The notes: generated from the sequence alone by a model not told the origin. 15,673 nt of DNA from Candidatus Thorarchaeota archaeon (GCA_003345545.1 PRDH01000079.1:1-15673), one strand, 5' to 3'; counted from the stretch's first letter, positions 435 to 14,258 are shown. Translations and numbers: made by a program.

Positions 435-872
435 CTAGATAGTGGGTCTGCTCCTCCACATACTCACAGCCTCGTACAAGAAAACGATTATCGAGAATGA
501 TGAGAAGACAACGAGTAGGATGAAATGGGGTGTCAGATACCATCCGAACAGCCACAATGCTCCAATAAGGTATGATATGGCGAAGAGCGAGTAGAACACA
601 TAGCGTGGGAGAAAAAAACCGTCCAGTCCAACAAAGAATCGGAGGATTCCAACTCTGATGTATTTTGTCACGCGAAATCCGTCGATCTGGTCCATCTCAA
701 CCAATTCGAGGTCTTCAAGCTTCTTCAGATGGTATAGCACCAAGCTTGGACTTGAGATTCCCATTCTCCGCTGGATTTGTCTTGCCGAGATTGGTTTTGT
801 CTGTCTAAGAAGAAAGAAGTATACTGCAAGAGTCTTCCCCTTCAAGTCATCCAAAGTTTGATCATCATCCAT
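435..872 (-). CDS. Membrane-anchored winged-helix (ArsR/MarR-like) transcriptional regulator
   Basis: N-terminal wHTH (TLAVYFFLL..PISARQIQRRMGISSPSLVLYHLKKLEDLELV) followed by two hydrophobic TM segments. ATG 872 is preferred over GTG 887 because GAGGGG lies just upstream of it. Confidence 0.85.
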   Translation of the reverse strand: MDDDQTLDDLKGKTLAVYFFLLRQTKPISARQIQRRMGISSPSLVLYHLKKLEDLELVEMDQIDGFRVTKYIRVGILRFFVGLDGFFLPRYVFYSLFAISYLIGALWLFGWYLTPHFILLVVFSSFSIIVFLYEAVSMWRSRPTI

Positions 873-1018
873 GCATGAACCCCTCACATACTAATCTGAA
901 GTGTAGCCATAATAATGATTCTAGAGATTGCGGTGTTACCTTGGTTTGTAGATGTCACAAGCCATATAACGAAGCTGAACCTAGCGCGAACCATCCTTAG
1001 GAAATGGAGACTCCACAT

Positions 1019-2341
1019 ATGAGTAAACACAAGGAACTTTACGATCAAGTCTTCCGTTTGTTGGAATCCCATGATGACTGGATGACAAAAACCATCAATC
1101 TCATTGCCTCGGAGAACGTGAGTTCGCCAGCAGTCAGATCAGCAATAGTGTGCGACTTCAGAGACCGCTATGCAGAGGGCTGGCCGGGAGAGAGAGTCTA
1201 TGCAGGATGCAAGTACATAGACCAAGTCGAGCTGATCACCATCGACCTTGCAAAGAAGCTGTTCAAGGCAGAGTTTGCAGATGTTCGACCAGTTTCGGGC
1301 GTCGTAGCAAATCTGGCTATGTATACGGCGGTCATGGAGCCACTGGACAGGATGATGGCACTGTCTATTGCCCACGGAGGCCATATCTCTCACGCAAGGA
1401 AGGACCTCGGCGGTACCGCAGGTCAGATTCGTGGCCACAAGGTGCGCAATTGGATATTTGATGACAAGGAGTTCAATATTGATGTTGATGCGAGTATCAA
1501 AGAGATAAGGGAACTACAAGGAAAAGGCGATGAGATCAAGTTCCTGCTCTTTGGTGCGAGTGTATTCCCATTTCCACACCCAGTAAAGGAGTTCCGTGAG
1601 ATTGCAGACGAGTACGGGATGACGATTGGGTATGACTCAGCTCATGTCTCTGGTCTGATCGCCAGTGGCTTCTTCCAAGATCCCCTGAGAGAGGGCGCAG
1701 ACATCGTGACAGCATCGACCCACAAGACAATGCCGGGTCCGCAGCACGGGATCATTTTGGCCAAGGAGAAATTTGCTGATGCTATCAAGCGGGCCTCATT
1801 CCCAGGTCTGCTGAGCAATCACCATCTGCACAATGTTGCAGGTTTAGCCATCGCGCTTGCAGAGATGACGGAGTTTGGAGTGGCCTATAGTAAGCAAATC
1901 ATGAAGAATGCTAAGGCACTAGCCCAAGCACTTCATGAGAGAGGCTGGCAAGTCATCGCCGAGCACAAGGGTTTCACTCAGTCACATGTAGTTCTTGTGG
2001 ATGTCACAGAAACCCCGTTGAGTGATGGAGCGGCTGTTGAAAAGACCCTGGAGAATGCAAACATAGTCATCAACCGCAATCTTCTGCCATGGGACAAGAA
2101 GAGAGGTCGGGACTATAAGACACCAGGCGGAATTCGACTTGGTACGAGCGAGATGACCCGACTGGGAATGAAGGAGTCCGAGATGGATGCAATTGCGGAA
2201 CTCATGACACGAGTGGTCATGAAGGGCGAAGATGTCAAGAAAATCGCAGCCGAGGTCGGAGAGTTCCGCAAGGACTACCAGAAGGTGCATTTTGCCTTCG
2301 AAACTGAAACTCCTGCCTATGCTCATCTCAGGTTCAGGTGA
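1019..2341 (+). CDS. glyA: Serine hydroxymethyltransferase, archaeal type
   Basis: Motifs INLIASEN, YAEGWPGERVYAGC, HGGHISH, YDSAHVSGL, STHKT (PLP lysine) and GIRLGT. ATG 1019 has GGAG upstream; the track start at 1004 is the alternative. Confidence 0.97.
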   Translation: MSKHKELYDQVFRLLESHDDWMTKTINLIASENVSSPAVRSAIVCDFRDRYAEGWPGERVYAGCKYIDQVELITIDLAKKLFKAEFADVRPVSGVVANLAMYTAVMEPLDRMMALSIAHGGHISHARKDLGGTAGQIRGHKVRNWIFDDKEFNIDVDASIKEIRELQGKGDEIKFLLFGASVFPFPHPVKEFREIADEYGMTIGYDSAHVSGLIASGFFQDPLREGADIVTASTHKTMPGPQHGIILAKEKFADAIKRASFPGLLSNHHLHNVAGLAIALAEMTEFGVAYSKQIMKNAKALAQALHERGWQVIAEHKGFTQSHVVLVDVTETPLSDGAAVEKTLENANIVINRNLLPWDKKRGRDYKTPGGIRLGTSEMTRLGMKESEMDAIAELMTRVVMKGEDVKKIAAEVGEFRKDYQKVHFAFETETPAYAHLRFR

Positions 2342-2379: not shown

Positions 2380-2682
2380 ATGAGGATTGAAGATGCACAG
2401 GAAATGATGAGAAGAGTCTACCTCGAGAGGGACAGAGCCAGAGGAGTGAGGGGCACTCTTCAGAGGACAGAGGAAGAACTTGCGGAACTTAGCAGGGCTG
2501 TCCTCGAAGGGGGCAACACAGCAGCTCTGGAAGAAGAGGTGGCGGACGTCTTTGCATGGCTCTGCTCCCTTGCAAATCTTCTTACTATCGACGTGTCTGA
2601 GGCGTTCTACAAGAAGTACACAGATGCTTGTTCCAAGTGCAAACAGAGCCCGTGTTCTTGCCCTATGGAGTCCAGAGAGTGA
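2380..2682 (+). CDS. MazG-like NTP pyrophosphohydrolase with C-terminal Cys cluster
   Basis: EEELAEL...EEEVADVFAWLCSLAN fits the all-alpha NTP-PPase ExxE...ExxD pattern; C-terminal CSKCKQSPCSC. Confidence 0.9.
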   Translation: MRIEDAQEMMRRVYLERDRARGVRGTLQRTEEELAELSRAVLEGGNTAALEEEVADVFAWLCSLANLLTIDVSEAFYKKYTDACSKCKQSPCSCPMESRE

Positions 2683-2738
2683 TGAGTCAAGAGAATCATA
2701 GACTGAGCAGGTTCAGTCCATTCTTTGATTTCCTCTGA
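2679..2738 (+). ncRNA. Candidate box C/D 2'-O-methylation guide sRNA
   Basis: Perfect box C GTGATGA (2679-2685, overlapping the mazG stop), CTGA at 2703-2706 (D') and CTGA at 2735-2738 (D), spanning 60 nt. The segment before D' (AAGAGAATCATAG) is antisense at 12/13 positions to the LSU helix 69 sequence CUAUGACUCUCUU as I recall it. No clear C' box. Confidence 0.55.
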
Positions 2739-2817
2739 CCTGTGTATTGACACACGGATGTGTTTCAACAACATGGCTCAACAATTCTAGGTCTGATTCT
2801 CTGAACTATTAGAAGAG

Positions 2818-2825
2818 TTAATAAA
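2818..2825 (+). promoter_or_regulatory. Putative TATA box for Sec61-beta
   Basis: TTAATAAA about 50 nt upstream of ATG 2871. Confidence 0.5.
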
Positions 2826-2870
2826 CCAAACATCTTGTGGAGTCAGAGCGCTCAAGAGAAGGTAGTTAGA

Positions 2871-3065
2871 ATGCCGAAGACCGCTAAAAAGAAGAAAGGA
2901 AAGCGCGGAGAAGGACCGATGCCGAGCGGTGGAGCCGGCTTGATCAGATTCTTTGAAGACGAAACCCCAGGCATCAAGATAGGTCCCACTGTCGTCGTGA
3001 TAATCGCAAGTATTCTTCTGGTCGCTACGGTGATTGCACACATACTCTACCAAATAACAACCTGA
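2871..3065 (+). CDS. sec61b: Preprotein translocase subunit Sec61-beta
   Basis: Basic N-terminus, signature GAGLIRFFEDETPGIKIGP and a single C-terminal TM. ATG 2871 with upstream GAAGGT is preferred over the track start at 2835. Confidence 0.95.
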   Translation: MPKTAKKKKGKRGEGPMPSGGAGLIRFFEDETPGIKIGPTVVVIIASILLVATVIAHILYQITT

Positions 3066-3111
3066 GCAGGTCAATCTGGGTCACAGATTCAGATGGGACA
3101 TGCCCTAAGTG

Positions 3112-3118
3112 TTATAAG
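3112..3118 (+). promoter_or_regulatory. Putative TATA box for the rpl44e operon
   Basis: TTATAAG about 45 nt upstream of ATG 3161; AGGTGA RBS just before the start. Confidence 0.5.
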
Positions 3119-3160
3119 AGACTCTAAGCCGAATCGCACAGTCAAGACAGGTGACTCGCA

Positions 3161-3442
3161 ATGAAGGTAAAAGGCGAACTGAACAAGTACTGTCCACGCT
3201 GCCATAAATACACTGAGCATGCCGTGTCGATCGAGAAGGCTGGAAAGAGACGGAGCATGGCTCAAGGTGAACGTCGTATGAGGAAGAGGACAAAGGGCTA
3301 TGGATCATTCCCGAAGCCAATCCAGCACAAGTTCGCCAAGACAACAAAGAAGACTGTTCTGAAATTCAAGTGCAAGGAATGCGGCCACATCGTTTTGGGC
3401 AAGAGTATTCGAATGAAGAAGGTAGAGGTTGAACGAGCGTAA
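3161..3442 (+). CDS. rpl44e: 50S ribosomal protein L44e (eL42)
   Basis: YCPRCHKYTEH...GYGSFPKP...AKTTKK..LKFKCKECG zinc ribbon; first gene of a conserved archaeal cluster. Confidence 0.97.
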   Translation: MKVKGELNKYCPRCHKYTEHAVSIEKAGKRRSMAQGERRMRKRTKGYGSFPKPIQHKFAKTTKKTVLKFKCKECGHIVLGKSIRMKKVEVERA

Positions 3443-3453
3443 GGTGATTCTTA

Positions 3454-3654
3454 ATGACCAAGGGAGAGATAGTACAGCAACCAAGTTCGCGGTTCCTTAA
3501 GGTAAAGTGTCTTGATTGTGAGAACGAGCAGATTATCTTTGGGAATGCCACAACAGAAGTGAAATGTCTTAAGTGTGGAAAACTACTTGCCAAGCCTAGT
3601 GGAGGCAGAGCCAAGCTCGAGCCGATTGCAAGAGAAGTTGAAGTTCTTCCGTAA
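3454..3654 (+). CDS. rps27e: 30S ribosomal protein S27e (eS27)
   Basis: PSSRFLKVKCLDCENEQIIF...VKCLKCGKLLAKPSGGRA; AGGTGA RBS. Confidence 0.97.
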   Translation: MTKGEIVQQPSSRFLKVKCLDCENEQIIFGNATTEVKCLKCGKLLAKPSGGRAKLEPIAREVEVLP

Positions 3655-3666
3655 GGAGAAGAGAGA

Positions 3667-4461
3667 ATGGTATTCAAACGTGGCGAATGGCCAAATGTGG
3701 ACGACTATGCGATAGCAGTTGCTACCAAGGTCGCCGCATATGGAGCATACGTCACGTTGCCTGAGTATGGTGACAAGGAGGGCTTCATCCATATCTCCGA
3801 GGTCAGCAGTACATGGGTCAGAAATATACGTAACCACATCCATGAGAACCTGCGAGTCGTGGTAAAGATTCTGAAAGTCGATCCTGAGAAGATGCATATT
3901 GACTGCTCGCTCAGGCGTGTTTCTAATGAATCGAAGAGGGCCAAAAACAACGAGTGGAAACGCGCACAGAAGGCTGAGAAGATCCTTGAACTTGTAGCCA
4001 AGGAGAACGATATGACCCTCGAACAGGTCTATGAGAAGCTTGGCTGGCCAATCGAAGATGTCTTTGGCGAGATCTATACGGGACTTGAGCGAGCGGTGGA
4101 CGGGGGCATAGAGGCCCTCGATGAGGTTCAGTCCACAAAGAAACTGAAGAAACAGGTTGCAGACTTTGCAGCACAGAGAATCGAGATTCCATCGGTCGAG
4201 ATTGATGGTGAATTGACCATAAGCGTGCCAGGGCCAGAGGGTGTAGAGGTGATAAAGAAGGCCCTCACAGAGGGACTTGCCAAGGGAAAGTCACACGAGA
4301 AGTCAACAACTGAGATATACACTCTTGGCGCACCCAGATATAAACTCAGAATTGTCAGTCCTGACTACAAACAGGCGGAGGAGGTACTCTCCGAAGTTCT
4401 CGGTCTGATTCAGACGCAGGTTGAGCACGATTCTGGTACTGCAAGTTTTGTGAAGAAGTAG
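3667..4461 (+). CDS. eif2a: Translation initiation factor 2 alpha subunit (aIF2-alpha)
   Basis: S1 domain YGAYVTLPEYGDKEGFIHISEVSSTWVRNIR, IDCSLRRV and C-terminal GAPRYK; canonical gene order. Confidence 0.97.
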   Translation: MVFKRGEWPNVDDYAIAVATKVAAYGAYVTLPEYGDKEGFIHISEVSSTWVRNIRNHIHENLRVVVKILKVDPEKMHIDCSLRRVSNESKRAKNNEWKRAQKAEKILELVAKENDMTLEQVYEKLGWPIEDVFGEIYTGLERAVDGGIEALDEVQSTKKLKKQVADFAAQRIEIPSVEIDGELTISVPGPEGVEVIKKALTEGLAKGKSHEKSTTEIYTLGAPRYKLRIVSPDYKQAEEVLSEVLGLIQTQVEHDSGTASFVKK

Positions 4462-4464
4462 GGA

Positions 4465-4650
4465 ATGACAGTGGCGCATCTCTTCAAATGCACGAAATGC
4501 AACAGATACACTCTCAACCAGAGCGTATGTCCATCGTGCGGAGGTCCTGTGTCAGAACCCGGACCCCCGAAATACAGTCCTCAGGACAAATATGGTGTCT
4601 ATAGACGAAAAGCAAAACGCAAGAGCGTCACTGCACAAGATGTTTCGTGA
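4465..4650 (+). CDS. nop10: H/ACA RNP protein Nop10
   Basis: KCTKCNRYTL..VCPSCGG...PPKYSPQDKYGVYRR, directly after aIF2-alpha. Confidence 0.95.
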   Translation: MTVAHLFKCTKCNRYTLNQSVCPSCGGPVSEPGPPKYSPQDKYGVYRRKAKRKSVTAQDVS

Positions 4651-4660
4651 TGGATTGTCT

Positions 4661-4720
4661 TAGAGAGAAAGTGCGGCAACTGATAGTGAACCAGCTGTCG
4701 CATGATTCATACTCTTTCTA
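4661..4720. terminator. Long imperfect stem-loop between convergent nop10 and aglB; possible terminator or structured RNA
   Basis: GTGCGGCAACTG (4671-4682) pairs with CAGCTGTCGCAT (4692-4703), and outer TAGAGAGA (4661-4668) with TCTTTCTA (4713-4720). On the minus strand the inner hairpin is followed by TTTCTCTCT. Confidence 0.45.
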
Positions 4721-7462
4721 GTAGAGCTGGACTGGAACCCAGAATGTTCTCCATGGACTTGCAAAGATGGGCTCGCCAGTCTTGATGTTGTCCCACCATA
4801 GTAGTCTGATTTGGTAGTTCATTCCAGGAATCATCCCAAGGTCCTGGGGATCTCCGGACTTCAGCGGAAGTAGGAACTCGATGACGCCATTACCAGTCGC
4901 GAACTCGGTGGAGTTCGTGCCAGTGGAGTCCTGAGCCCAAGTACCATCATAGCGAATATGGCCATCGTAGGGCATACCGTTGTAATTCACTATTCGTATG
5001 TCGGAATCGAGAGGCATATCCTCAGGCGAGATCTGAATACCAAAGGCATCATCACCCACCGTGTAGTTGTCCATCTTGATTCCATAGTACATGTGGGTCG
5101 TGTTGGCCCTGGTGTAGATTTGGGATTTGTAGGTTCCAGCAAATGTGTAATCGAAACTGGGCGAAGAGAGCTCAGTTGTTGAGAGGCTACCGTCGAGTGA
5201 AACGCCAAGGTTGGTGCTCACCAGACCAGGAACCCAATCAGCCATTGTCCGGTTCAAGTATTGATAGTACATTGTGTAGTCGATCTCATAGATCTTGACA
5301 GTACCGTAGGCTGAGCTGATGAATGGGTTGACAAATGCACCGTGAAGGTCCACAGGCATGTGCTCCACCCAGTCTTCATCCTCCCAGAAGAGTTTGTCTA
5401 CCTCTATCCTGATGTCAGTGAGCCCAAGGTTGTTAGCCTCTGTTTCATCTTTTGGCTCGCCATAGGACATCAACTTGTAGATTGTTGAACTATAGAATGG
5501 CTCCTGAGTCGAATCATCCGAACCAAGGTATGTTTCATCATCGATGAATGTAGACCCAAACCTGTCCTCGGCGATACGGACCATCCATGGCCACTTGCCA
5601 TCATCGCCACCGAAATAAGTGGATCTGTGGCCCCAATACACCAGTACGTGTGTGGTGTTCCACAGTCTGAATGTCTTCAGTGATTCAGTAAGATTCAGTG
5701 CCATGAGCGCATATCCCATGAGTGCTATCTGCGTACTATTGAACGTCGCATTATCATCGATAGTCTTCGCGTCCGATCCACTATTTATCCAGTAGCCATA
5801 GTCCCACCAAGCACCTATGATGGACCCTGGAGGCAGGACATTCCGAATATAGGTGATAGCGTTCTGCCAATCAGTGGACTGACTGCTATCTGTGAGCGCC
5901 GCTGGCGCAAACTCTGGCCTGCCCACCTGATTTGAAACGTATTGTACGCCAAGTATCACATTGATAGAGAGGAGGAGGCCTATGAACGCAAAGGCCGCGA
6001 GAGCATGCTCAGAGGTGAGTGACGTACTCATCCTAAACCTACGCCTTTCAAACACAGACTTCTGTGTGACGACCTTTGCATAGGGCGCAAGTACGCTATA
6101 GGCAGCCACAGCTGCCAAGACTGCAACACCTGGACCAAGAATCATGCCCAGACGAATCATGCTTCCTGCAAAATAGACAGAGCTCAGGCCATAGATTACC
6201 ATTAGCCAGTCTTCATCACGACCTTTCTTGAACAGGAAGTACATTCCAAGTGGAAAGAAGAAGATTAGGATTAGCAGTGTGTTATAGAATGCACCCCACG
6301 GGCTGGGAAGGTGCTCTGCAACTGAGGCAAGAATCCTCTCATCCAGTCTCGTAAATGGGTTGATTACAGTAAGGAACTTTGACCCAAGAGTCAGAATCGG
6401 GTTCGAGGTGAAGGGTCGGATTGTTAGCGCATAACTTCCTACATAGAGCAAGTAGGCAATGACACCAACAGCTGGTGTAACTATTCCAAGGAGAATGGGC
6501 CTCATATGGGGTGAAAGCACACTTGCCGTGGCTTCTCGATAGTGGCCCACTCGGAGCCAGACCTCGTATAGAATGAGAACTGCGGCTACTCCGATAGGAG
6601 CCAAGGTCGTGAAAGAAGTCAGATTGTTAAAACCAACCCTTGGAATCAAGTTACCAATAAAGAGACCAAGTGATAGAGTGATCAGATAGCTCGAGAGTAA
6701 CCGTTTGCTATAGTGGCCCATCATGAGCATTATGAAAGCATAGAGAGCGAGCAGACCTAGTATGTACTCAGCTGCTCCCCAAGACACCATCAAGTATCCA
6801 AGAGAGAGACCTGCTCCAACAGAGGCTGTCAGGGAACCCCGTTTAAGACCTCTCATGAACAGGAACATAGTGAGAACAATGGCAAAGACACCCACAGATT
6901 CATTGTCATAGAAGCCTGCAACCGTTCTCTGGAGATATGCAGGAATGAAAGCAGCGAAGATGCTAGTAAACAGCCCAACTGTGTTATTCATAAGTTCTCT
7001 GCCGAGGAAAAATGCAATTACTACAGTGAAAGCACCCATGAATGCTGGGAAAGCCAAGGAAACGGTAAGAACATCTATCTTGATGCCCAATCCATTGAGC
7101 AGGAAGTAGAAGAATGAGCTTGTGAAGGGCACTCCTACATAACTGGTCCTGGCCATGTCACGGCCAAAGGGGACCCAAGTTGAATCATCATACCATGTGA
7201 AAAAGGCACTGAATCCATTCTCGGCCACATACCTAGTGACACGAATCTGAAACCAACAGTCGAAAGCGCGTGGGATAGGTTGAGAGTTGATTAGAGGCTC
7301 CAGACGCAGCGCGAGTGCAGCGATGAAAGTGATGATTAGAGTCACAATGATAAGGACTGAACCACGTGAGATCTTCGATTTCGGTCTATGAAATACCTGC
7401 TTCAGGAATCTTCCAGTGGACCTCTTTATCTTCTCAAACGACATGTGGAGTACTCTCTCCAT
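4718..7462 (-). CDS. aglB: Oligosaccharyltransferase catalytic subunit STT3/AglB, eukaryote-like, with extra C-terminal domain
   Basis: About 13 TMs, with RAFDCWF, AGFYDNE (DxE), SVAEH, WWDYG (5795-5809), DNATFNST and GDDGKWPWMVRI (DK motif). ATG 7444 is an alternative start. Confidence 0.96.
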   Translation of the reverse strand: MERVLHMSFEKIKRSTGRFLKQVFHRPKSKISRGSVLIIVTLIITFIAALALRLEPLINSQPIPRAFDCWFQIRVTRYVAENGFSAFFTWYDDSTWVPFGRDMARTSYVGVPFTSSFFYFLLNGLGIKIDVLTVSLAFPAFMGAFTVVIAFFLGRELMNNTVGLFTSIFAAFIPAYLQRTVAGFYDNESVGVFAIVLTMFLFMRGLKRGSLTASVGAGLSLGYLMVSWGAAEYILGLLALYAFIMLMMGHYSKRLLSSYLITLSLGLFIGNLIPRVGFNNLTSFTTLAPIGVAAVLILYEVWLRVGHYREATASVLSPHMRPILLGIVTPAVGVIAYLLYVGSYALTIRPFTSNPILTLGSKFLTVINPFTRLDERILASVAEHLPSPWGAFYNTLLILIFFFPLGMYFLFKKGRDEDWLMVIYGLSSVYFAGSMIRLGMILGPGVAVLAAVAAYSVLAPYAKVVTQKSVFERRRFRMSTSLTSEHALAAFAFIGLLLSINVILGVQYVSNQVGRPEFAPAALTDSSQSTDWQNAITYIRNVLPPGSIIGAWWDYGYWINSGSDAKTIDDNATFNSTQIALMGYALMALNLTESLKTFRLWNTTHVLVYWGHRSTYFGGDDGKWPWMVRIAEDRFGSTFIDDETYLGSDDSTQEPFYSSTIYKLMSYGEPKDETEANNLGLTDIRIEVDKLFWEDEDWVEHMPVDLHGAFVNPFISSAYGTVKIYEIDYTMYYQYLNRTMADWVPGLVSTNLGVSLDGSLSTTELSSPSFDYTFAGTYKSQIYTRANTTHMYYGIKMDNYTVGDDAFGIQISPEDMPLDSDIRIVNYNGMPYDGHIRYDGTWAQDSTGTNSTEFATGNGVIEFLLPLKSGDPQDLGMIPGMNYQIRLLWWDNIKTGEPIFASPWRTFWVPVQLY

Positions 7463-7623
7463 GCTCTTTCGAACTAGCAGGAGCGATTTTGTGATGCGCT
7501 AAAAAGGTTGTTGTTAATTATACAGTCGTCCTAACAACGATTACTTGCTGAATACGAAAACAATTGAGGGAATAGGGCCATGATGGGGTATCTCTGCCGC
7601 ATAATGTTTCGTGGAATGAGTGT

Positions 7624-8028
7624 CTATTCTGAAGCAATGAAAGTCCTGTACGCATCTGCCTTCATTAGCTTTGCCAGATCGGCTTTCAGATTCGAGGGCT
7701 TAATCTTGAACATCCAGCCCTTTCCGTAGCAGTCTTCGTTGACAATCTCAGGTGCATCCTCAAGCTCAGTGTTCACTTCAACGATTTTACCACTGACTGG
7801 TGAGAAAATATCAGACGATGCCTTCATAGACTCTACAAGTCCGCATTCCTCACCTGCTTTGACGACAGTGTCAACCTCAGAGATCTCGACAAATGTGATC
7901 TCGTGTAGGGAGTTCTGAGCATGGTCCGTTATTCCAACGACAACGATATCACCTTGAACCCTGGCATACTCATGGTCCTTGGTGTAATATAGTCCATCTT
8001 TGACTTCGGTGCCATCCATATAGTTCAC
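7624..8028 (-). CDS. gcvH: Glycine cleavage system H protein
   Basis: YYTKDHEY, VGITDHAQ, VESMKAS (lipoyl lysine) and PEIVNEDCYGKGW. Start is GTG 8028 or ATG 8019 (the latter has a GGTGA RBS). Confidence 0.96.
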   Translation of the reverse strand: MNYMDGTEVKDGLYYTKDHEYARVQGDIVVVGITDHAQNSLHEITFVEISEVDTVVKAGEECGLVESMKASSDIFSPVSGKIVEVNTELEDAPEIVNEDCYGKGWMFKIKPSNLKADLAKLMKADAYRTFIASE

Positions 8029-8054
8029 CAGCAGCCTCGGGTTATTGCATTCTG

Positions 8055-8060
8055 TTTAAA
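8055..8060 (-). promoter_or_regulatory. Putative internal TATA box for gcvH
   Basis: TTTAAA about 27-32 nt upstream of GTG 8028 in the 44-nt gcvT-gcvH spacer. Confidence 0.5.
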
Positions 8061-8072
8061 TCAGTTTGGATG

Positions 8073-9218
8073 TTACACGGTGCGCGATCCACCATACCTT
8101 TGAGGGTCGTAGAAGGGCCACTCGGCAATCTCGGCCTTCCGATGACGCCCCTTGATATCGATCTCAATTATGTCCCCTGTGTTGACTGTATTGGGGGGGA
8201 CATATCCAAGGCCTATCCCCTTGTTCAAGACTGGAGAAACACCCCCACTGGTTGTCTGACCGATTACGTTTCCATTCAGAAGAATAGGGTAGTGTTCGCG
8301 TGGGATTCCACGATCAATCATCACGAATCCGATACGCGTCTTCTTCACACCGTCTTCCTTGTGACTCCTGACTGTATCGAAGCCAATGTAGTGGGGTTCT
8401 ACCTTGAACTTGACGGCATACGGAATCTTGGCCTCAATCGGAGATGTTTCCTCGTCAAGCTCGTGACCATATAGAACAAACCCTGCCTCAAGACGAGTCG
8501 AGTCTCTGGCACCTAGGCCGCAGGGCTTGATACCAAACTCAACGCCCTGTGCAAGAAGATTCTCCCAGAAGGCTATGGCTCTCTTCTTGCCCTCATCAGT
8601 AAAGGGACAGTCTAGTATGAGAACCTCAGCACCGTCCTCACCAGTGTAGCCAGTTCTGCACAGGTATGTATCATATCCAGCAATATCAACGGGGTAGCAG
8701 GTAAATCTGTTGTACCCACTGAGATCGCGTCCTGCAATCTTGCTCAGTAGTTGGAGCGCTTTCGGGCCTTGCACAGCAATCATAGCAATCTCTGAGGACC
8801 TGTCTATAACCTTGACATCAAATGACTTGGAGTTCTTCGACAGATGCCTCTTGATCTTCGGGCCATTCGAGGCATTGGTGATCCAGATATACTCATCAGT
8901 GCCAATCCTGTAGAGCATCAGGTCATCATGTATGCCCCCGTGCTCGTTCAGGCACGTCGTGTAGTGTCCGTCATTTACATCGAGTTTGCTCACATTATTA
9001 GTAGTCATCTTCTGGAGGAATTCCGCGGCCTGTGGGCCTCTGATAAAGAACCGGAACATATGACTCGTGTCAAATATGCCGACTCCTTCTCTGACCGCCA
9101 TATGTTCTTCTCTGATGTCACTGTACCTGACAGGCATCTCCCACCCTGCAAAGGGAATCACATCGCCATGCGTTTTATGCCAGTCATAGAGCTGGGTTCG
9201 TTTCAACGCGTCACTCAT
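8073..9218 (-). CDS. gcvT: Glycine cleavage system T protein (aminomethyltransferase)
   Basis: LKRTQLYDWH, FAGWEMPVRY, FDTSHM, AVQGP, RTGYTGEDG and GLGARDSTRLEAG; GAGGT RBS. Confidence 0.97.
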   Translation of the reverse strand: MSDALKRTQLYDWHKTHGDVIPFAGWEMPVRYSDIREEHMAVREGVGIFDTSHMFRFFIRGPQAAEFLQKMTTNNVSKLDVNDGHYTTCLNEHGGIHDDLMLYRIGTDEYIWITNASNGPKIKRHLSKNSKSFDVKVIDRSSEIAMIAVQGPKALQLLSKIAGRDLSGYNRFTCYPVDIAGYDTYLCRTGYTGEDGAEVLILDCPFTDEGKKRAIAFWENLLAQGVEFGIKPCGLGARDSTRLEAGFVLYGHELDEETSPIEAKIPYAVKFKVEPHYIGFDTVRSHKEDGVKKTRIGFVMIDRGIPREHYPILLNGNVIGQTTSGGVSPVLNKGIGLGYVPPNTVNTGDIIEIDIKGRHRKAEIAEWPFYDPQRYGGSRTV

Positions 9219-9306
9219 TGAGATACCTCGTTCATTTCTTGGTTTGTGACTACATCAGCTACATTTTATCTCCTTCTATACAGACTCTGAATAGAGGCGA
9301 ACATGA

Positions 9307-10176
9307 TTGAGACTGCCCTATGTTGACGTGTCGGGGCTTCGGATTGGAGAGGGATATCCTGTTCGAATCATGGGAGTCCTTAACGTTTCACCGGAGTCGT
9401 TCTACAAGGACTCGGTTGCTATCGATGAAGACTCTATCCAGCAAGCCGTTGGTAGATTCGAGAGAGAGGGCGCAGATATCATCGACATAGGTGGAGCCTC
9501 AACAGCTCCCAGGAATATCTATGGCGCTCCTGAAGTAAGTGCCAGTGAGGAACTCAGACGGGTCACAGAAGCTATTGCCATCATAACTACGATGACCAAG
9601 ATTCCATTATCCATCGATACTGTTTCTTCTGTGGTGGCCAAAAAAGCACTTGATTTAGGAGCGTCGGTCATAAATGACGTGTCTGGATTGAGAGCGGACT
9701 CAAAGATGGCGAAGCTGGTGGCGGACAGAGCAGTTCCAGTCATACTCATGGCGAACTGTGGAGGCCCTTGTGTTAGCTATCAGGCTTCGATAGACTCGTT
9801 GAGAAACAGCCTCTCGATAGCCCTTGAAACAGGAATTGAATCAAGTATGACACTAGTTGACCCAGGGATAGGCTTTGGCAAGCAACCTGAAGTCGACTAT
9901 GAGATACTGCATAATCTGCATGCGTTTACTGCGCTTCATCGTCCCGTGCTTGTAGGTGTGTCCCGGAAGGCCTTCATCGGGAATAAGCTGGGACAACCAG
10001 ACCCCTCTGATCGACTTCTGGGATCGATTGCAGCAACCTCAGTAGCAGTATACAACGGGGCCAGTGTCATACGAACACATGATGTCAAAGAAACAAGAAT
10101 TGCAGTTGTAATAGGAGAAGCAATTCGAGGGAATGCACGGGAAAGGCGAAGGGACCAGATGGAGGACTCGCAATGA
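9307..10176 (+). CDS. folP: Dihydropteroate synthase
   Basis: IMGVLNVSPESF, DIIDIGGAST, SIDT, INDVSG, DPGIGFGK, SRKAFIG and RTHDV. TTG start, exact position uncertain. Confidence 0.95.
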   Translation: MRLPYVDVSGLRIGEGYPVRIMGVLNVSPESFYKDSVAIDEDSIQQAVGRFEREGADIIDIGGASTAPRNIYGAPEVSASEELRRVTEAIAIITTMTKIPLSIDTVSSVVAKKALDLGASVINDVSGLRADSKMAKLVADRAVPVILMANCGGPCVSYQASIDSLRNSLSIALETGIESSMTLVDPGIGFGKQPEVDYEILHNLHAFTALHRPVLVGVSRKAFIGNKLGQPDPSDRLLGSIAATSVAVYNGASVIRTHDVKETRIAVVIGEAIRGNARERRRDQMEDSQ

Positions 10177-10886
10177 GGTGGCTTGATTGGCAACCAGTCT
10201 ATCTTGATATCGTCAATAGACTGAACCTAGACCCAGCCATGGATCGAGAGGCAACAAGGCTGCTCACAGAGATACTGATGGAAGTCGAGCCGAATCCACT
10301 GCTTCGTCAGTTGCAGGAAAAAATCCAAGGTAAGACAGTTGTCATTTGCGGGGCAGGGCCTTCACTTGAAACACACCTTCAATCTGTGATGAGTACTAGA
10401 ATTGGCTCAAGTTTCGTCTATGTTGCAGCAGATGGTGCAGTGTCAGCTCTTCTGAATCTAGACTGTAAATGCAGTGTCATTACCACGGACCTCGATGGCA
10501 ATCTGGATGATATAGAAGAGGCCACAGGGGGCGGGGCAGTGACAATTGTCCATGCCCATGGAGACAATATGGACAAGGTGAGGGAAGTAGTTCCGAAACT
10601 GGGAACAGTGCTCGGAAGCACACAGGTGGAACCAACTGAACGTGCCTTTCTCTGGGGCGGCTTCACTGATGGTGACCGAGCGTGTCATATAGTAACAGAC
10701 TATTCACCAGACAGAATCATCCTCGCGGGCATGGACTTTGGTGGCCTCGTAGGAAAGTGGTCCAAACCAATGCATGAAACTCACTTCCCAGCGAGCAAAC
10801 GAAAGAGAATCAAACTCAGTATTGCTAAGCAGCTGATATCGTCATTGATAGAGCGAACAGCTATACCCTTCACTGTACTCAAGTGA
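10173..10886 (+). CDS. mptE: 6-hydroxymethyl-7,8-dihydropterin pyrophosphokinase, archaeal MptE type
   Basis: GAGPSL, AADGA, TTDLDG, VHAHGDN, GSTQVEP, GGFTDGDRA and LAGMDF motifs; ATGA overlap with the folP stop. Confidence 0.93.
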   Translation: MRWLDWQPVYLDIVNRLNLDPAMDREATRLLTEILMEVEPNPLLRQLQEKIQGKTVVICGAGPSLETHLQSVMSTRIGSSFVYVAADGAVSALLNLDCKCSVITTDLDGNLDDIEEATGGGAVTIVHAHGDNMDKVREVVPKLGTVLGSTQVEPTERAFLWGGFTDGDRACHIVTDYSPDRIILAGMDFGGLVGKWSKPMHETHFPASKRKRIKLSIAKQLISSLIERTAIPFTVLK

Positions 10887-10917
10887 GATTCGAGATGGGC
10901 ACGCGAAGGCATAATGC

Positions 10918-11340
10918 CTAGAGTTGGCCTGTCTTAATGGCCCACAGATAGCTGAAGATAAGGAATGCTACACCAGACATGATGATACCTAGAATCATGA
11001 GCCGGGTGGCATAACCTGGCTGAAATACATACTTTGATCCGTAGTAGATAAGACCAAGGCCTATCACGCCCACAAAAATGACAACCGATGCAACGACACC
11101 TTCCATACCGAGCTGCACATCAAGACCCGGAGCCACGAGAATAGGCGTTCCACCAGAGCTTCCTGCAATTGCAGGCGGGGTTCTCACGAGCGTGTATACA
11201 TTACCACCGAGGACGAATAAGACAGCAATGAGCATGAGGCCAAATATGACTGTGTCTGGAGGCCTGGTCGGCATCCTGAACTTGGGCCTTGAAAGCCTCA
11301 CTTTGGGTCGTAGAATGATTCTCGGCCACCAAGCTCGCAT
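10918..11340 (-). CDS. DC2/OSTC-like (OST3/OST6 family) oligosaccharyltransferase accessory subunit
   Basis: 140 aa, three TMs, Pro/basic N-terminus. GGNVYTLVRTPPAIAG and QLGMEGVVASVVIFVGVIGL align by eye with eukaryotic DC2 as recalled ([35 protein letters not shown]). No thioredoxin domain. Confidence 0.8.
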   Translation of the reverse strand: MRAWWPRIILRPKVRLSRPKFRMPTRPPDTVIFGLMLIAVLFVLGGNVYTLVRTPPAIAGSSGGTPILVAPGLDVQLGMEGVVASVVIFVGVIGLGLIYYGSKYVFQPGYATRLMILGIIMSGVAFLIFSYLWAIKTGQL

Positions 11341-11372: not shown

Positions 11373-11444
11373 CTTTTAAGAGTATCGAGAAATCAATCAC
11401 CGTACTAGTAGCAGACCTTCAGAATCTGCGGTGTGTATTTAAAA
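11373..11444. promoter_or_regulatory. Divergent promoter region of DC2-like gene and topA
   Basis: CTTTTAAG at 11373-11380 (CTTAAAAG on the minus strand, about 35 nt above the DC2-like ATG) and TTTAAAA at 11438-11444 upstream of the topA TTG. Confidence 0.45.
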
Positions 11445-11492
11445 CTCCGGAGCTTATTCTGCGTGAGAGGAAAGATAGAGAGGCGAAAAGCA

Positions 11493-13616
11493 TTGCCCCG
11501 ATTGATGGTCCTTACCGAAAAACCAACAGCGGCAAAGAAGATTGCTACCGCTCTTGACGAGAAAAGGTCACCTAAGGAGGTCAAGAGAGGAAAGACATCA
11601 TACTATGAATGCAAGAGAGGAAGTGATGAGCTCATTGTCACATATGCTCTGGGGCATCTCTTCGAGCTTCAGCAGGTTGAGAAGGGCTGGACTTATCCCC
11701 GCATGGAGAGTAAATGGGTTCCGAAGTATGAGGTCGATAAGAAGGCAACCAATACCAGACCAATCATAAACCTAATTCAGAAGTTATCACGAGATGTAGA
11801 TGGATTCATTGTTGCGACCGACTATGACGTCGAGGGCAGTCTGATTGGATATCTCGTCCTGAAATATGCCTGCAGAGCGGACCCGATGAGGGCACATCGG
11901 ATGCTGTTCTCTGCATTGACTGAAACGGATCTGGAGAAGGCCTATGATACCAGAGGCGCTCTGGATTTTCCAGTTATTGAGGCAGGCCATGTTCGCCATG
12001 AAGTCGATTGGTTATATGGTATCAACCTGACGAGAGCTCTGACTCTGTCCATCAAGAGAGCAGCTGGCTGGTTCAAGGTGGTTTCAACAGGACGCGTTCA
12101 AGGGCCAACTCTCTCATTCATAGCTCAGAGGGAGAGAGAGATCAATCTCTTCATCCCGACGCCATTCTGGACAATTCATGTGATTGGTGCTCACAATGAT
12201 GATGAGATTGAGTTGGAATACTCTAGGCGGCAGATCTCATCAGAGCGGGACGCCAACAGGATTGTGAGTGAGCTGAGTGGACAGAATGCAATAGTGAGCT
12301 CTATAGAAAAGCGGACTGTTACTCAGCAACCACATCCGCCATTCAATCTAAGTTCGCTTCAGGCTGAGGCCTACAGACAATTCGGTTTCAAGCCCAGCCG
12401 AACCCTTGCAATAGCGCAAGGGCTCTATCTTGATGCCCTAATATCCTATCCAAGAACAGATAGTGAGATGCTTCCTCCCACATTGGACATCAAAAACATA
12501 CTTACTGGCCTAGGAGGTATTAAGGACTATACGTCAATGGTGGCGACCATTCTAAGGGGGAATCTAGTACCGATTCAAGGAAAGAAGACGGATCCAGCAC
12601 ATCCGGCAATACATCCCACGGGAGAGCGACCAATCAAACAGCTACCACCGAGCGATAAGAAAGTCTTCGACCTCATCGTACGAAGATTTCTCTCGCTCTT
12701 TGGAGAGCCGATTATCAAGAATCATCTGAGAGCTGATATTAAGAGCGGCAATCATTGTCTATACGCAAGAGGGCTCCAGATTGTGAGAAAGGGATGGCTA
12801 GAGTTCTATGAGCCCTACTTCAAGCCCGAAGAGAGGGCGCTCCCTACTATTAAGGTGGGCGACACTATCCATCTTGTATCCGTAGACTCTGAGAACAAAT
12901 ACACGGAGGGGCCTGCCCGGTTCAACCCATCTAGCCTCCTGAAACTACTAGAGAGAAAGAATCTTGGAACAAAAGCCACAAGATCGAGTATTGTAGATTC
13001 AGTGAAATCGAGAGGATACACCCAAGGAGAGAGGTTTGAACTCTCTACTCTTGGATATGCTGTTTTTGAAACTCTGAACCAGTACGTCCCTGAGATGCTC
13101 TCACCAGAGATGACAATACGACTAGAGGTAGAGATGGAGCGCGTTCAGAGCGGTTTCAAGAGTCGGGAGAGTGTCGTCACTGAAGCAAAGAGCGAGCTCC
13201 TCAGAAATCTCGAGGAATTCAAGAACAAAGAGGACAAGATAGGCGAAACACTGGTCAAGGGGCTTCAGAGATATTGGAGGGACACCGAAGAACTTGGGCC
13301 GTGCCCAAAATGTGATGATGGTATCCTCAAAATCGTAAGGTCTCCAAAGACTGGAAAAAGATTCGTGGGATGCTCAAACTACAGGGAAGGCACATGCGAT
13401 CAGACATTTCCACTTCCACAGAAGGGAACTATTGCGCCTCTTGATGATGTCTGCCCGCATTGCAGCCATAGAATGATAAAGGTGATTTCTGGGCGGCGGA
13501 CATGGACCACGTGCATTAACTGGTCGAAATGCCCAGGAAGACAAGAGGACCTCAAGGCTCTGGATGAGAGAAGAGCCAAGAGGAATGGTGGTGCTGTTGG
13601 AGGACAGGAATCATGA
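11493..13616 (+). CDS. topA: Type IA DNA topoisomerase (archaeal TopA/Topo III type) with C-terminal Zn ribbons
   Basis: Toprim TEKP and ATDYDVEG, STGRVQGPTL, catalytic ISYPRTDS, AHPAIHPT, LGTKATR, and Cys4 ribbons (CPKC..C..C, CPHC..C..C). TTG 11493 with GAGG RBS is preferred over the track start at 11433. Confidence 0.96.
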   Translation: MPRLMVLTEKPTAAKKIATALDEKRSPKEVKRGKTSYYECKRGSDELIVTYALGHLFELQQVEKGWTYPRMESKWVPKYEVDKKATNTRPIINLIQKLSRDVDGFIVATDYDVEGSLIGYLVLKYACRADPMRAHRMLFSALTETDLEKAYDTRGALDFPVIEAGHVRHEVDWLYGINLTRALTLSIKRAAGWFKVVSTGRVQGPTLSFIAQREREINLFIPTPFWTIHVIGAHNDDEIELEYSRRQISSERDANRIVSELSGQNAIVSSIEKRTVTQQPHPPFNLSSLQAEAYRQFGFKPSRTLAIAQGLYLDALISYPRTDSEMLPPTLDIKNILTGLGGIKDYTSMVATILRGNLVPIQGKKTDPAHPAIHPTGERPIKQLPPSDKKVFDLIVRRFLSLFGEPIIKNHLRADIKSGNHCLYARGLQIVRKGWLEFYEPYFKPEERALPTIKVGDTIHLVSVDSENKYTEGPARFNPSSLLKLLERKNLGTKATRSSIVDSVKSRGYTQGERFELSTLGYAVFETLNQYVPEMLSPEMTIRLEVEMERVQSGFKSRESVVTEAKSELLRNLEEFKNKEDKIGETLVKGLQRYWRDTEELGPCPKCDDGILKIVRSPKTGKRFVGCSNYREGTCDQTFPLPQKGTIAPLDDVCPHCSHRMIKVISGRRTWTTCINWSKCPGRQEDLKALDERRAKRNGGAVGGQES

Positions 13617-13834
13617 AAGAGTGTCGAATCTGTGGTCGCGACGGTACTGAGGAGGACCTCTGTGAGTATCATAGCGCCGCCTATACTAGTCTCAAATCTG
13701 TCTTTGAGAAGTGGGCAGCGGCAGTGGAGGAACTGACCTGGGAGAAGTACATTGATAGTGTCAGGGAGCTCGAGAACACTGGGCAGTGGATTAGAGAAAT
13801 AATCGACGACATCAGGTCACAAGATGATTCCTGA
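13613..13834 (+). CDS. Small CCCH zinc-finger hypothetical protein coupled to topA
   Basis: CRICGR-x7-CEYH followed by amphipathic Trp-rich helices; ATGA overlap with the topA stop and GGAGG/AGGA RBS upstream. Confidence 0.8.
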   Translation: MKECRICGRDGTEEDLCEYHSAAYTSLKSVFEKWAAAVEELTWEKYIDSVRELENTGQWIREIIDDIRSQDDS

Positions 13835-14156
13835 GAAGAGATACTATCTCAAGCACCACTTCACGATTCATCTGTGCGATGCCTATGACGACCAGACAAG
13901 TTCGATTGGTCCAATATGCAACTCGCTCACTCACTGTTCGTACCAGAGCATTGTCAACTCCCATTGACAATAACCCCGTCGAAGTTGGTTCTGAACTTCC
14001 TTGCCCAGGTGGAATTGCTACTGCCGAGATGCCCAGCCTAAAACGTTCTTTGTCTGATATCAGTATCAGAAGTCCATTCTCAAGATCTAGAATCCGAACT
14101 CTAATTGTGCCCATGCTGGTTTCTGATGAGAACTCGGATATGTCATCAAATTTCAT
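13812..14156 (-). CDS. PAC4/PAC3-like proteasome assembly chaperone (putative)
   Basis: 114 aa with a beta-beta-beta..helix-beta-helix pattern. IRVRILDLENGLLILIS..LGISAVAIP..PTSTGLL..VRTVSERVAYWTNRTCLVVI resembles the PSMG4/PAC4 family pattern as recalled. Confidence 0.6.
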   Translation of the reverse strand: MKFDDISEFSSETSMGTIRVRILDLENGLLILISDKERFRLGISAVAIPPGQGSSEPTSTGLLSMGVDNALVRTVSERVAYWTNRTCLVVIGIAQMNREVVLEIVSLLRNHLVT

Positions 14157-14258
14157 GAGAGGTCACGAAATCTTCGGGGGACACTTGGTTAAATCAATAC
14201 CGAAACTTGAAGCAACATGGTTATCAATGCCAGCGGTTGATTGAGCCTTGGCACCCCC

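Follow-up and report, generated by a model that had tools for sequence, protein, structure and literature searches.

Genes for STT3, a DC2/OSTC-like subunit and Sec61beta in an old gene block of a Thorarchaeota genome

A 15,673-nucleotide stretch of DNA from a Candidatus Thorarchaeota archaeon (GCA_003345545.1, PRDH01000079.1:1-15673), referred to as the window, was analyzed for parts of a eukaryote-like machinery for secretion and N-glycosylation. The window encodes three genuine parts of such a machinery, namely, STT3 and a DC2/OSTC-type subunit of the oligosaccharyltransferase (OST) and Sec61beta of the translocon, with their proximity probably being the remnant of an old gene block rather than an operon. 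The window is contig C79 of an 82-contig, 2.69-Mb genome that is 92.9% complete, and its gene order was derived from a list of open reading frames (ORFs) and from Pfam scans. The nearest relatives of the 140-residue DC2-like protein were found in metagenome-assembled genomes (MAGs) labelled Candidatus Thorarchaeota (64 to 99% identity), and the 76 genomic loci recovered with this protein were likewise of Thorarchaeota, which identifies the organism as an Asgard archaeon of that group. A previous sequence-only reading of the window had placed a Sec61-beta gene, an STT3 with eukaryote-type motifs and a DC2-sized protein with three transmembrane helices (TMs) within 8.5 kb and had proposed that they may form a translocon-docked OST. 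All three genes were located by Pfam within that distance:

2871-3065, plus strand: Sec61beta (PF03911)
4718-7462, minus strand: STT3, 914 residues (PF02516)
10918-11340, minus strand: DC2/OSTC-like protein, 140 residues (PF04756)

The 140-residue protein resembles DC2/OSTC

The 140-residue protein matched PF04756 (OST3_OST6) with an E value of 1.7e-9 and 37.9 bits (cut-off, 27), and a six-frame search gave the same result; the protein does not lie outside the OST3/6/DC2 family, an outcome that the sequence-only reading had named as refuting its proposal. The match was confined to profile positions 182 to 284 of 294, the membrane part, and no thioredoxin domain was detected in the protein by Pfam. 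Three hydrophobic helices were predicted, giving the following layout:

11254-11340, minus strand: N-terminal basic cytosolic motif
11185-11253, minus strand: TM1
11101-11184, minus strand: outer loop
11038-11100, minus strand: TM2
10936-11001, minus strand: TM3

The N-terminal 29 residues contain nine lysines and arginines versus one in the outer loop. This charge distribution and the positive-inside rule place the N terminus in the cytosol and the C terminus outside, which is the topology described for DC2 (Shrimal 2019, PMC6761772). Residues 4 to 29 are near-invariant among Thorarchaeota orthologues (W4, W5, P6, P12, R15, R18 and F21), and this conservation upstream of Met23 indicates that the start of the 140-residue form is real. 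Many database entries (P0096-P0122) begin at Met23 and are truncated calls of 118 residues from which the conserved cytosolic motif is lost. This motif, WWP followed by basic residues and prolines, is shared with eukaryotic OSTC.

An exhaustive search of 1.8 billion representatives detected 99 relatives, nearly all of 85 to 240 residues and none with a thioredoxin domain. The longer relatives had cytosolic N-terminal extensions, one with HEAT repeats and a zinc ribbon, and one relative was eukaryotic (an MMETSP transcript of 148 residues, OSTC-like). The single sequence and three alignments were compared with the PDB: A2, consisting of 29 diverse relatives; A3, of Thorarchaeota sequences only; and A6, of loci from the Asgard phylum and Thorarchaeota proteins only. 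Human OSTC was detected each time, with E values of 0.002 for the single sequence, 2.4e-7 for A3, 4e-22 for A2 (81.6 bits, residues 9 to 144 of 149) and 6.6e-20 for A6 (74.4 bits, residues 10 to 144 of 149), and the alignments to OSTC took in the cytosolic N-terminal basic/proline motif. MAGT1 was not detected with the single sequence or A3 and was matched by A2 with an E value of 6e-9 (38.9 bits) and by A6 with one of 1.4e-5 (27.9 bits, far weaker than the 74.4 bits of OSTC), while yeast Ost3/6 was not detected by any of these searches. An AlphaFold2 model of the protein (pLDDT, 83.4) was compared with solved structures using Foldseek. Hits 1 to 5 were OSTC chains from human and canine OST-A/translocon structures, followed by MAGT1 and yeast Ost6 as hits 6 and 7, with TM-scores of 0.5 to 0.67; structural alignments exhibited 17 to 19% identity to OSTC. 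Profile and fold comparison place the protein in the Ost3/6/OSTC superfamily and, within it, with the DC2/OSTC kind rather than the oxidoreductase kind. Both the Asgard-only profile and the fold match favored OSTC over Ost3/6, in keeping with the DC2-like assignment of the sequence-only reading.

Human DC2/OSTC (PDB 6S7O chain H, 8B6L, 8PN9 and 9N9J) resembles this protein in its length (about 140 to 150 residues), three helices, cytosolic N terminus and absence of a thioredoxin domain, and also in the N-terminal basic/proline motif, a GG-x-Y end of TM1 and a Q-(F/Y)-x-x-E-G start of TM2. Shrimal et al. 2017 and Braunger et al. 2018 are said to have dealt with human DC2/OSTC in OST-A. The human protein differs in having KCP2 and a dedicated STT3A paralogue as partners and in residing in the endoplasmic reticulum (ER) rather than in a cell membrane. 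KCP2 was not found in the Thorarchaeota genome with PF09775, a search that small diverged proteins may escape, and no dedicated STT3A paralogue was found besides the single STT3 of this genome. Yeast Ost3 and Ost6 and human MAGT1 and TUSC3 (PDB 6EZN, 7OCI and 6S7T) share PF04756 and, in their TM2 to TM4, the same fold, whereas the DC2-like protein is without their signal peptide, lumenal CxxC thioredoxin domain and fourth helix. It is very improbable that the 140-residue protein has a role outside glycosylation, such as that of a small membrane protein resembling a transporter. The name of the Pfam family includes "transporter family," and a transporter role was once proposed for MagT1/TUSC3, but the profile match to OSTC runs from end to end, the fold matches OSTC as present in solved OST-A complexes, and the gene is recurrently linked to STT3 in five Asgard families.

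Two Thorarchaeota MAGs contained a second, more distant DC2-like copy (56 to 62% identity) in another neighbourhood (L074, JAEOTX010000154.1; L077, JBHLRP010000096.1), their canonical copies being L040 and L026; the second copy could be a paralogue or due to bin heterogeneity. A second PF04756 hit in the genome of the window (G000:C26:116867-117028; L002:1231-1761, plus strand) was considered as a split-off thioredoxin half of Ost3 and rejected, as it is a cytosolic WCSPC thioredoxin with no helix and no signal peptide. The N-terminal half of PF04756 matched ordinary cytosolic thioredoxins above the cut-off in many genomes and also in E. coli and other controls; genome-wide "OST3/6" counts obtained with this model are, therefore, inflated.

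STT3 and Sec61beta

STT3 matched PF02516 with an E value of 6e-49 and was the sole STT3 found in the genome. When compared with all solved structures, its best PDB matches were a fungal-type STT3, human STT3A, yeast Stt3 and human STT3B (E values, 4e-84 to 2e-76); Pyrococcus AglB was matched with an E value of about 3e-4. Three motifs were read from the translation:

6305-6325, minus strand (residues 380-386): SVAEHLP motif
5789-5809, minus strand (residues 552-558): WWDYGYW motif
5570-5605, minus strand (residues 620-631): DDGKWPWMVRIA motif

We take these to resemble the eukaryotic SVSEHQP, WWDYG and DK-type (DxxKxxWMxRI) motifs, respectively. The eukaryote type of STT3, as claimed by the sequence-only reading from its motifs, was confirmed at the level of sequence by the Pfam match, the motifs and the eukaryotic identity of the best solved relatives. 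STT3 extends about 185 residues beyond its usual C-terminal end (after VKIYEI, residues 722 to 727), and this extension (4718-5260) contains several N-x-S/T sequons. An Ost4-like micro-ORF was sought in the gap between STT3 and GcvH and not found.

Sec61beta was likewise correctly named by the sequence-only reading, with a PF03911 match well above the cut-off (E value, 2.5e-13; 50.3 bits; cut-off, 27) and one C-terminal helix. The protein is 64 residues long from the ATG at 2871 and would be 76 residues long from an upstream TTG at 2835, the helix occupying residues 53 to 71 of the 76-residue form; its motif GGAGLIRFFEDETPGIKVGP is kept in Thorarchaeota orthologues. SecY and SecE are encoded on other contigs (L124:1279-2796 and L125:1465-1650). 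A complex prediction for SecY, SecE, Sec61beta and the DC2-like protein produced a score of 0.00 with controls absent and counts neither for nor against docking.

Gene order in the window and within Thorarchaeota

The other genes of the window were identified from the ORF list and Pfam, with L44e, S27e, aIF2-alpha and Nop10 being context rather than OST parts:

435-887, minus strand: winged helix-turn-helix regulator (ORF list and Pfam)
1004-2341, plus strand: SHMT (ORF list and Pfam)
2380-2682, plus strand: MazG-like protein (ORF list and Pfam)
3161-3442, plus strand: L44e (PF00935)
3454-3654, plus strand: S27e (PF01667)
3667-4461, plus strand: aIF2-alpha (PF07541)
4465-4650, plus strand: Nop10 (PF04135)
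7624-8028, minus strand: GcvH (PF01597)
8073-9218, minus strand: GcvT (PF01571)
9307-10176, plus strand: pterin-binding dihydropteroate synthase (DHPS)-like enzyme (PF00809)
10173-10886, plus strand: MptE-like kinase (PF01973)
11433-13616, plus strand: type IA topoisomerase (ORF list and Pfam)
13613-14244, plus strand: two small ORFs (ORF list)
14241 to the window end, plus strand: XPD-like helicase (ORF list and Pfam)

The sequence-only reading had described ribosomal protein and initiation factor genes alongside the three genes and had cautioned that the latter were in separate transcription units; both statements held, with L44e, S27e and aIF2-alpha located between Sec61beta and STT3 and with three units across two strands in the ORF list. 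Sec61beta is on the same strand as the L44e-S27e-aIF2-alpha-Nop10 string, with gaps of 3 to 95 bp. STT3 is convergent with Nop10, and 161 bp separate it from GcvT-GcvH on its upstream side. The DC2-like gene, on the minus strand, stands alone between the plus-strand MptE-like and topoisomerase genes. Eight unrelated genes, four for translation and four for one-carbon/pterin metabolism, separate the members of the trio, an arrangement that does not qualify as an operon. Genes for one-carbon and pterin metabolism cluster around STT3 (SHMT, GcvT, GcvH, the pterin-binding DHPS-like enzyme and the MptE-like pterin diphosphokinase; 1004-2341 and 7624-10886).

The block was collinear in 76 Thorarchaeota loci, in the order XPD, two small ORFs, topoisomerase, DC2-like gene, MptE, pterin enzyme, GcvT, GcvH, STT3, Nop10, aIF2-alpha, S27e, L44e, Sec61beta, MazG and SHMT. 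As the named loci were found with the Thorarchaeota-only alignment A3, their coverage is restricted to Thorarchaeota. STT3 followed the DC2-like gene in 49 of the 51 loci with at least 7.5 kb of downstream sequence, and Sec61beta followed in 38 of the 42 with at least 9.7 kb. The trio spanned about 8 to 9 kb in almost every Thorarchaeota contig. Three named genes are unlikely to have come to lie within 8.5 kb of one another by chance in a genome of 2.69 Mb; their order is inherited as part of the general synteny of the clade, unrelated genes included.

Gene order outside Thorarchaeota

Outside Thorarchaeota, 20 kb around the DC2-like gene was sampled in 40 genomes from 11 other families of the phylum, designated here by numbers. 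The label Loki-type for family f9 reflects the 78% identity between its DC2-like protein and one from a Lokiarchaeota MAG. Four of the 11 families (f3, f4, f21 and one genus of f5) had STT3 at no more than 10 kb from the DC2-like gene. The two genes are adjacent and divergent in f4, with a gap of less than 280 bp, and are separated by XPD in f3, whose genomes are 1.3 to 1.4 Mb. A genome of f5, G003, had the DC2-like gene, STT3 and Sec61beta-MazG-topoisomerase within 12 kb in a different order. No STT3 was present within 10 kb in 17 Loki-type f9 loci or in f12, f13, f14, f24 and the other f5 genera. Unrelated neighbours of the DC2-like gene were also kept, with XPD being retained in three families (f3, f12 and f13) and GcvH/MptE in two (f9 and f24). 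The linkage of STT3, Nop10, aIF2-alpha, S27e and L44e was again observed in f3, f4 and f21, and Sec61beta was not found after L44e in f3 or f21.

These loci represent an old Asgard gene block that was broken up differently in each lineage. The block loosely ties the DC2-like gene to STT3, as expected of partners, and does not single out the trio. Conservation of the neighbourhood, by which the sequence-only reading proposed to be judged, was observed within Thorarchaeota and partly beyond, with unrelated genes retained about equally; as unrelated housekeeping genes are retained next to the DC2-like gene with a frequency similar to that of STT3, synteny says little about function. Selection for co-regulation, making the trio a functional cluster for a translocon-OST complex, is an improbable cause of the arrangement. 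The spacing in nearly all Thorarchaeota contigs (about 8 to 9 kb) and the recurrence of the trio within 12 kb, in another order, in one f5 genus would fit such selection, but the trio is split into three units across both strands and interrupted by four translation genes and four genes for one-carbon/pterin metabolism, no STT3 lies within 10 kb of the DC2-like gene in the 17 f9 loci or in most f5, f12, f13 and f14 loci, unrelated XPD, topoisomerase and GcvH/MptE genes are retained equally well, and L44e is not followed by Sec61beta in f3 or f21.

Sec61beta was separated from STT3 by 1.65 kb in the window and by 2.5 kb in G003. In the Loki-type genomes, unlike here, Sec61beta lies beside OST1, the ribophorin I gene, rather than near STT3. 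The coordinates of Ribophorin_I and Sec61_beta hits indicated that these two genes are adjacent and divergent in eight of the eight f9 and f24 genomes in which both were listed (G008, G030, G089 and G040, for which loci were fetched, and G049, G057, G071 and G094, by coordinates). The divergent pair was confirmed at the four fetched loci, L166 (G008:C25), L167 (G030:C1), L168 (G089:C8) and L169 (G040:C27), with a gap of about 120 to 155 bp and a MazG gene after Sec61beta. The OST1 and Sec61beta accessions of Ca. Prometheoarchaeum syntrophicum MK-D1 are also consecutive (WP_147663064 and WP_147663065). Sec61beta was accompanied by a gene for a small MazG-like pyrophosphohydrolase in every lineage examined (f1, f5-g20, f9 and f24; window positions 2380-3065, L123:12804-13321 and L166-L169); this gene lies upstream in Thorarchaeota and downstream elsewhere and has no obvious functional link to Sec61beta. 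That Sec61beta neighbors an OST gene in several lineages, a different one in each, is suggestive of a link, although this adjacency is a weak sign of function because the unrelated MazG gene is an equally constant partner. A term search of the available portions of Carilo et al. (2024, PMC11417166) found neither "operon" nor "gene cluster" and no comment on the OST1-Sec61beta adjacency; the recurring placement of Sec61beta beside an OST gene is a modest new detail.

Other subunits encoded in the genome

The sequence-only reading had suggested looking for ribophorin I and TRAP homologs. A search of the genome with the Pfam Ribophorin_I model yielded nothing, a false negative, while weak matches were present in 3 of 13 genomes of the same family. 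A same-genus orthologue (L163:979-3957, plus strand; 993 residues) matched Ribophorin_I with 31.4 bits (cut-off, 25) and also had an FKBP domain, and it led to an OST1/ribophorin-I-like gene on another contig (G000:C77:814-3792, minus strand, corresponding to L164:811-3798, minus strand). The encoded protein of 996 residues is 60% identical to the same-genus orthologue and is itself below the Pfam reporting threshold. The protein starts with a signal-peptide-like segment, and its outer part combines a DOMON-like stretch with an FKBP-type prolyl isomerase domain (FKBP_C; E value, 1.6e-7), a fusion that calls to mind FKBP11, which the title of PDB 9N9J names as bound to the human secretory translocon. 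The FKBP domain is followed by a ribophorin-like region, a single helix at about residue 840 and a cytosolic tail, basic and helical, that matches PDB 8WHN over 145 residues (E value, 7e-8). The structure 8WHN represents the cytosolic domain of OST1 from MK-D1, for which the available portions of Carilo et al. (2024, PMC11417166) report binding to ribosomes.

For TRAP, the outcome was mixed: TRAP-alpha and TRAP-gamma were not found, and a TRAP_beta-like domain was present but doubtful. This domain (G000:C71:1612-1917, L165) is part of a 558-residue ORF and scored 28.3 bits (cut-off, 22.4); as the same model has matches in Methanosarcina, it may be a generic beta-sandwich. The subunit set detected in this genome is smaller than that of OST-A, since Pfam models for KCP2, TRAP-alpha, TRAP-gamma, OST48 and Ost4 yielded no match.

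Possible association of the OST with the channel

Homology to solved eukaryotic OST suggests that the DC2-like protein would pack on the membrane domain of STT3 at the Ost3/6/DC2 site and that a multi-subunit OST in the cytoplasmic membrane would glycosylate chains emerging from SecYE-beta. A contact of the DC2-like protein with SecYE-beta, as mammalian DC2 has with Sec61, is plausible by analogy. One tentative reading is that the DC2-like protein bridges STT3 to SecYE-beta in a docked, OST-A-like, co-translational enzyme, with the OST1 tail holding the ribosome. Its resemblance to OSTC more than to Ost3/6, cytosolic N-terminal motif included, is consistent with a bridge, as are the homology of the OST1-like tail to the ribosome-binding MK-D1 domain, the recurrence of Sec61beta beside an OST gene (STT3 here and in G003, OST1 in f9 and f24) and the consecutive MK-D1 accessions of OST1 and Sec61beta. 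However, KCP2 was not found, Sec61beta always pairs with the unrelated MazG gene, which makes its adjacency an unreliable sign of function, and the DC2-Sec61 interface is small in mammals (Shrimal 2019, PMC6761772), so that likeness to DC2 is no proof of an old contact.

It may equally be that the DC2-like protein is an accessory of STT3 only, stabilizing STT3 or shaping its substrate groove like an Ost3/6 minus the oxidoreductase, and that the OST acts after translocation and off the channel, as in yeast; this, too, we hold tentatively. In yeast, whose OST has Ost3/6 at this position, enzyme and channel are not coupled (Shrimal 2019, PMC6761772), and the DC2-like gene is linked to STT3, being adjacent and divergent in f4, and not to SecY, which is on another contig. 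Against this, the profile and the N-terminal motif favor OSTC over Ost3/6, and the OST1-like protein has a tail homologous to a ribosome-binding domain.

Several points weigh against the reading given first, of a DC2-like protein packed on STT3 in a multi-subunit OST. The three genes are not an operon, and their different strands and units do not imply co-expression. TRAP-alpha, TRAP-gamma, OST48, Ost4 and KCP2 were not found using Pfam models in this 93%-complete genome. Binding of the DC2-like protein to STT3 is inferred from homology and from the linkage of its gene to STT3 in f1, f3, f4, f21 and f5-g20. In addition, a glycoproteomic study of MK-D1 (PMC11284389) reported, in its available portions, no clear ancestral eukaryotic traits.

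Comparison with published Asgard systems

The available portions of two papers bear directly on these results. Eme et al. (2023, PMC10307638) credit the detection of Asgard Ost1 and Ost3 homologues to earlier reports and add Ost2, Ost4, Ost5, Swp1, Wbp1 and TRAP as translocon-linked eukaryotic signature proteins. Carilo et al. (2024, J Biol Chem, PMC11417166) described Sec61 alpha, beta and gamma, OST1, OST3/6, STT3 and TRAP for MK-D1, superposed AlphaFold models on the human Sec61-OST-TRAP structure 8B6L and reported ER targeting in human cells and binding of the OST1 tail to ribosomes. The general form of the docked-translocon model is thus already published there. Judged by these portions of the two papers, the general statement that AglB is usually a single-subunit enzyme, used as a premise by the sequence-only reading, fails for Asgard and TACK archaea, and its remark that OST-subunit homologs had already been reported in Asgard archaea was accurate. 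As for its central proposal of a ribosome-Sec61-DC2-STT3 complex, the parts and the DC2 type stood up, while gene proximity did not serve as an argument and the novelty was lost to the published ribosome-Sec61-OST-TRAP assembly.

The MK-D1 set resembles the one described here in having Sec61 alpha, beta and gamma, STT3, an OST3/6-type subunit and an OST1 with a cytosolic helical tail, and the same working model was proposed for it. It differs in that the Thorarchaeota belong to a different class and have an OST1 of about 1,000 residues with added DOMON-like and FKBP domains and in that TRAP-alpha and TRAP-gamma were not found here with Pfam models. A term search of the available portions of Carilo et al. 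(2024) detected neither "DC2" nor "OSTC," and the available portions of the two papers call the small subunit OST3/6 or Ost3/Tusc3. No paper naming the Asgard small subunit as DC2/OSTC-type was found in the open literature searched, which is not proof of absence; the DC2-type assignment is a modest refinement of subunit naming.

Implications

The window is one more Thorarchaeota example of the catalogued Asgard parts, and the proximity of its genes cannot carry a functional argument. Eukaryogenesis still lacks an account of how the ER translocon and the glycosylation enzyme attached to it came about, and one reading, which we consider somewhat unlikely, would connect these results to that question. 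The Asgard "Ost3/6" proteins would be orthologues of DC2/OSTC and the channel-docked OST-A architecture would be ancestral, with a DC2-type tether from STT3 to SecYE-beta, helped by the ribosome-binding OST1 tail, having enabled co-translational scanning glycosylation at the cell membrane of archaea at a time when no ER existed; the thioredoxin-bearing Ost3/6 and the uncoupled OST-B and yeast-type complexes would be later eukaryotic derivatives. If this were true, Sec61beta genes that neighbor an OST gene (STT3 in Thorarchaeota and in one f5 genus, OST1 in Loki-type genomes) would be a trace of the partnership. Should the small Asgard subunit prove to be a genuine DC2, glycosylation would have been coupled to translocation before the ER arose, and an order of events with an OST-A-like complex first and Ost3/6 later would become testable.

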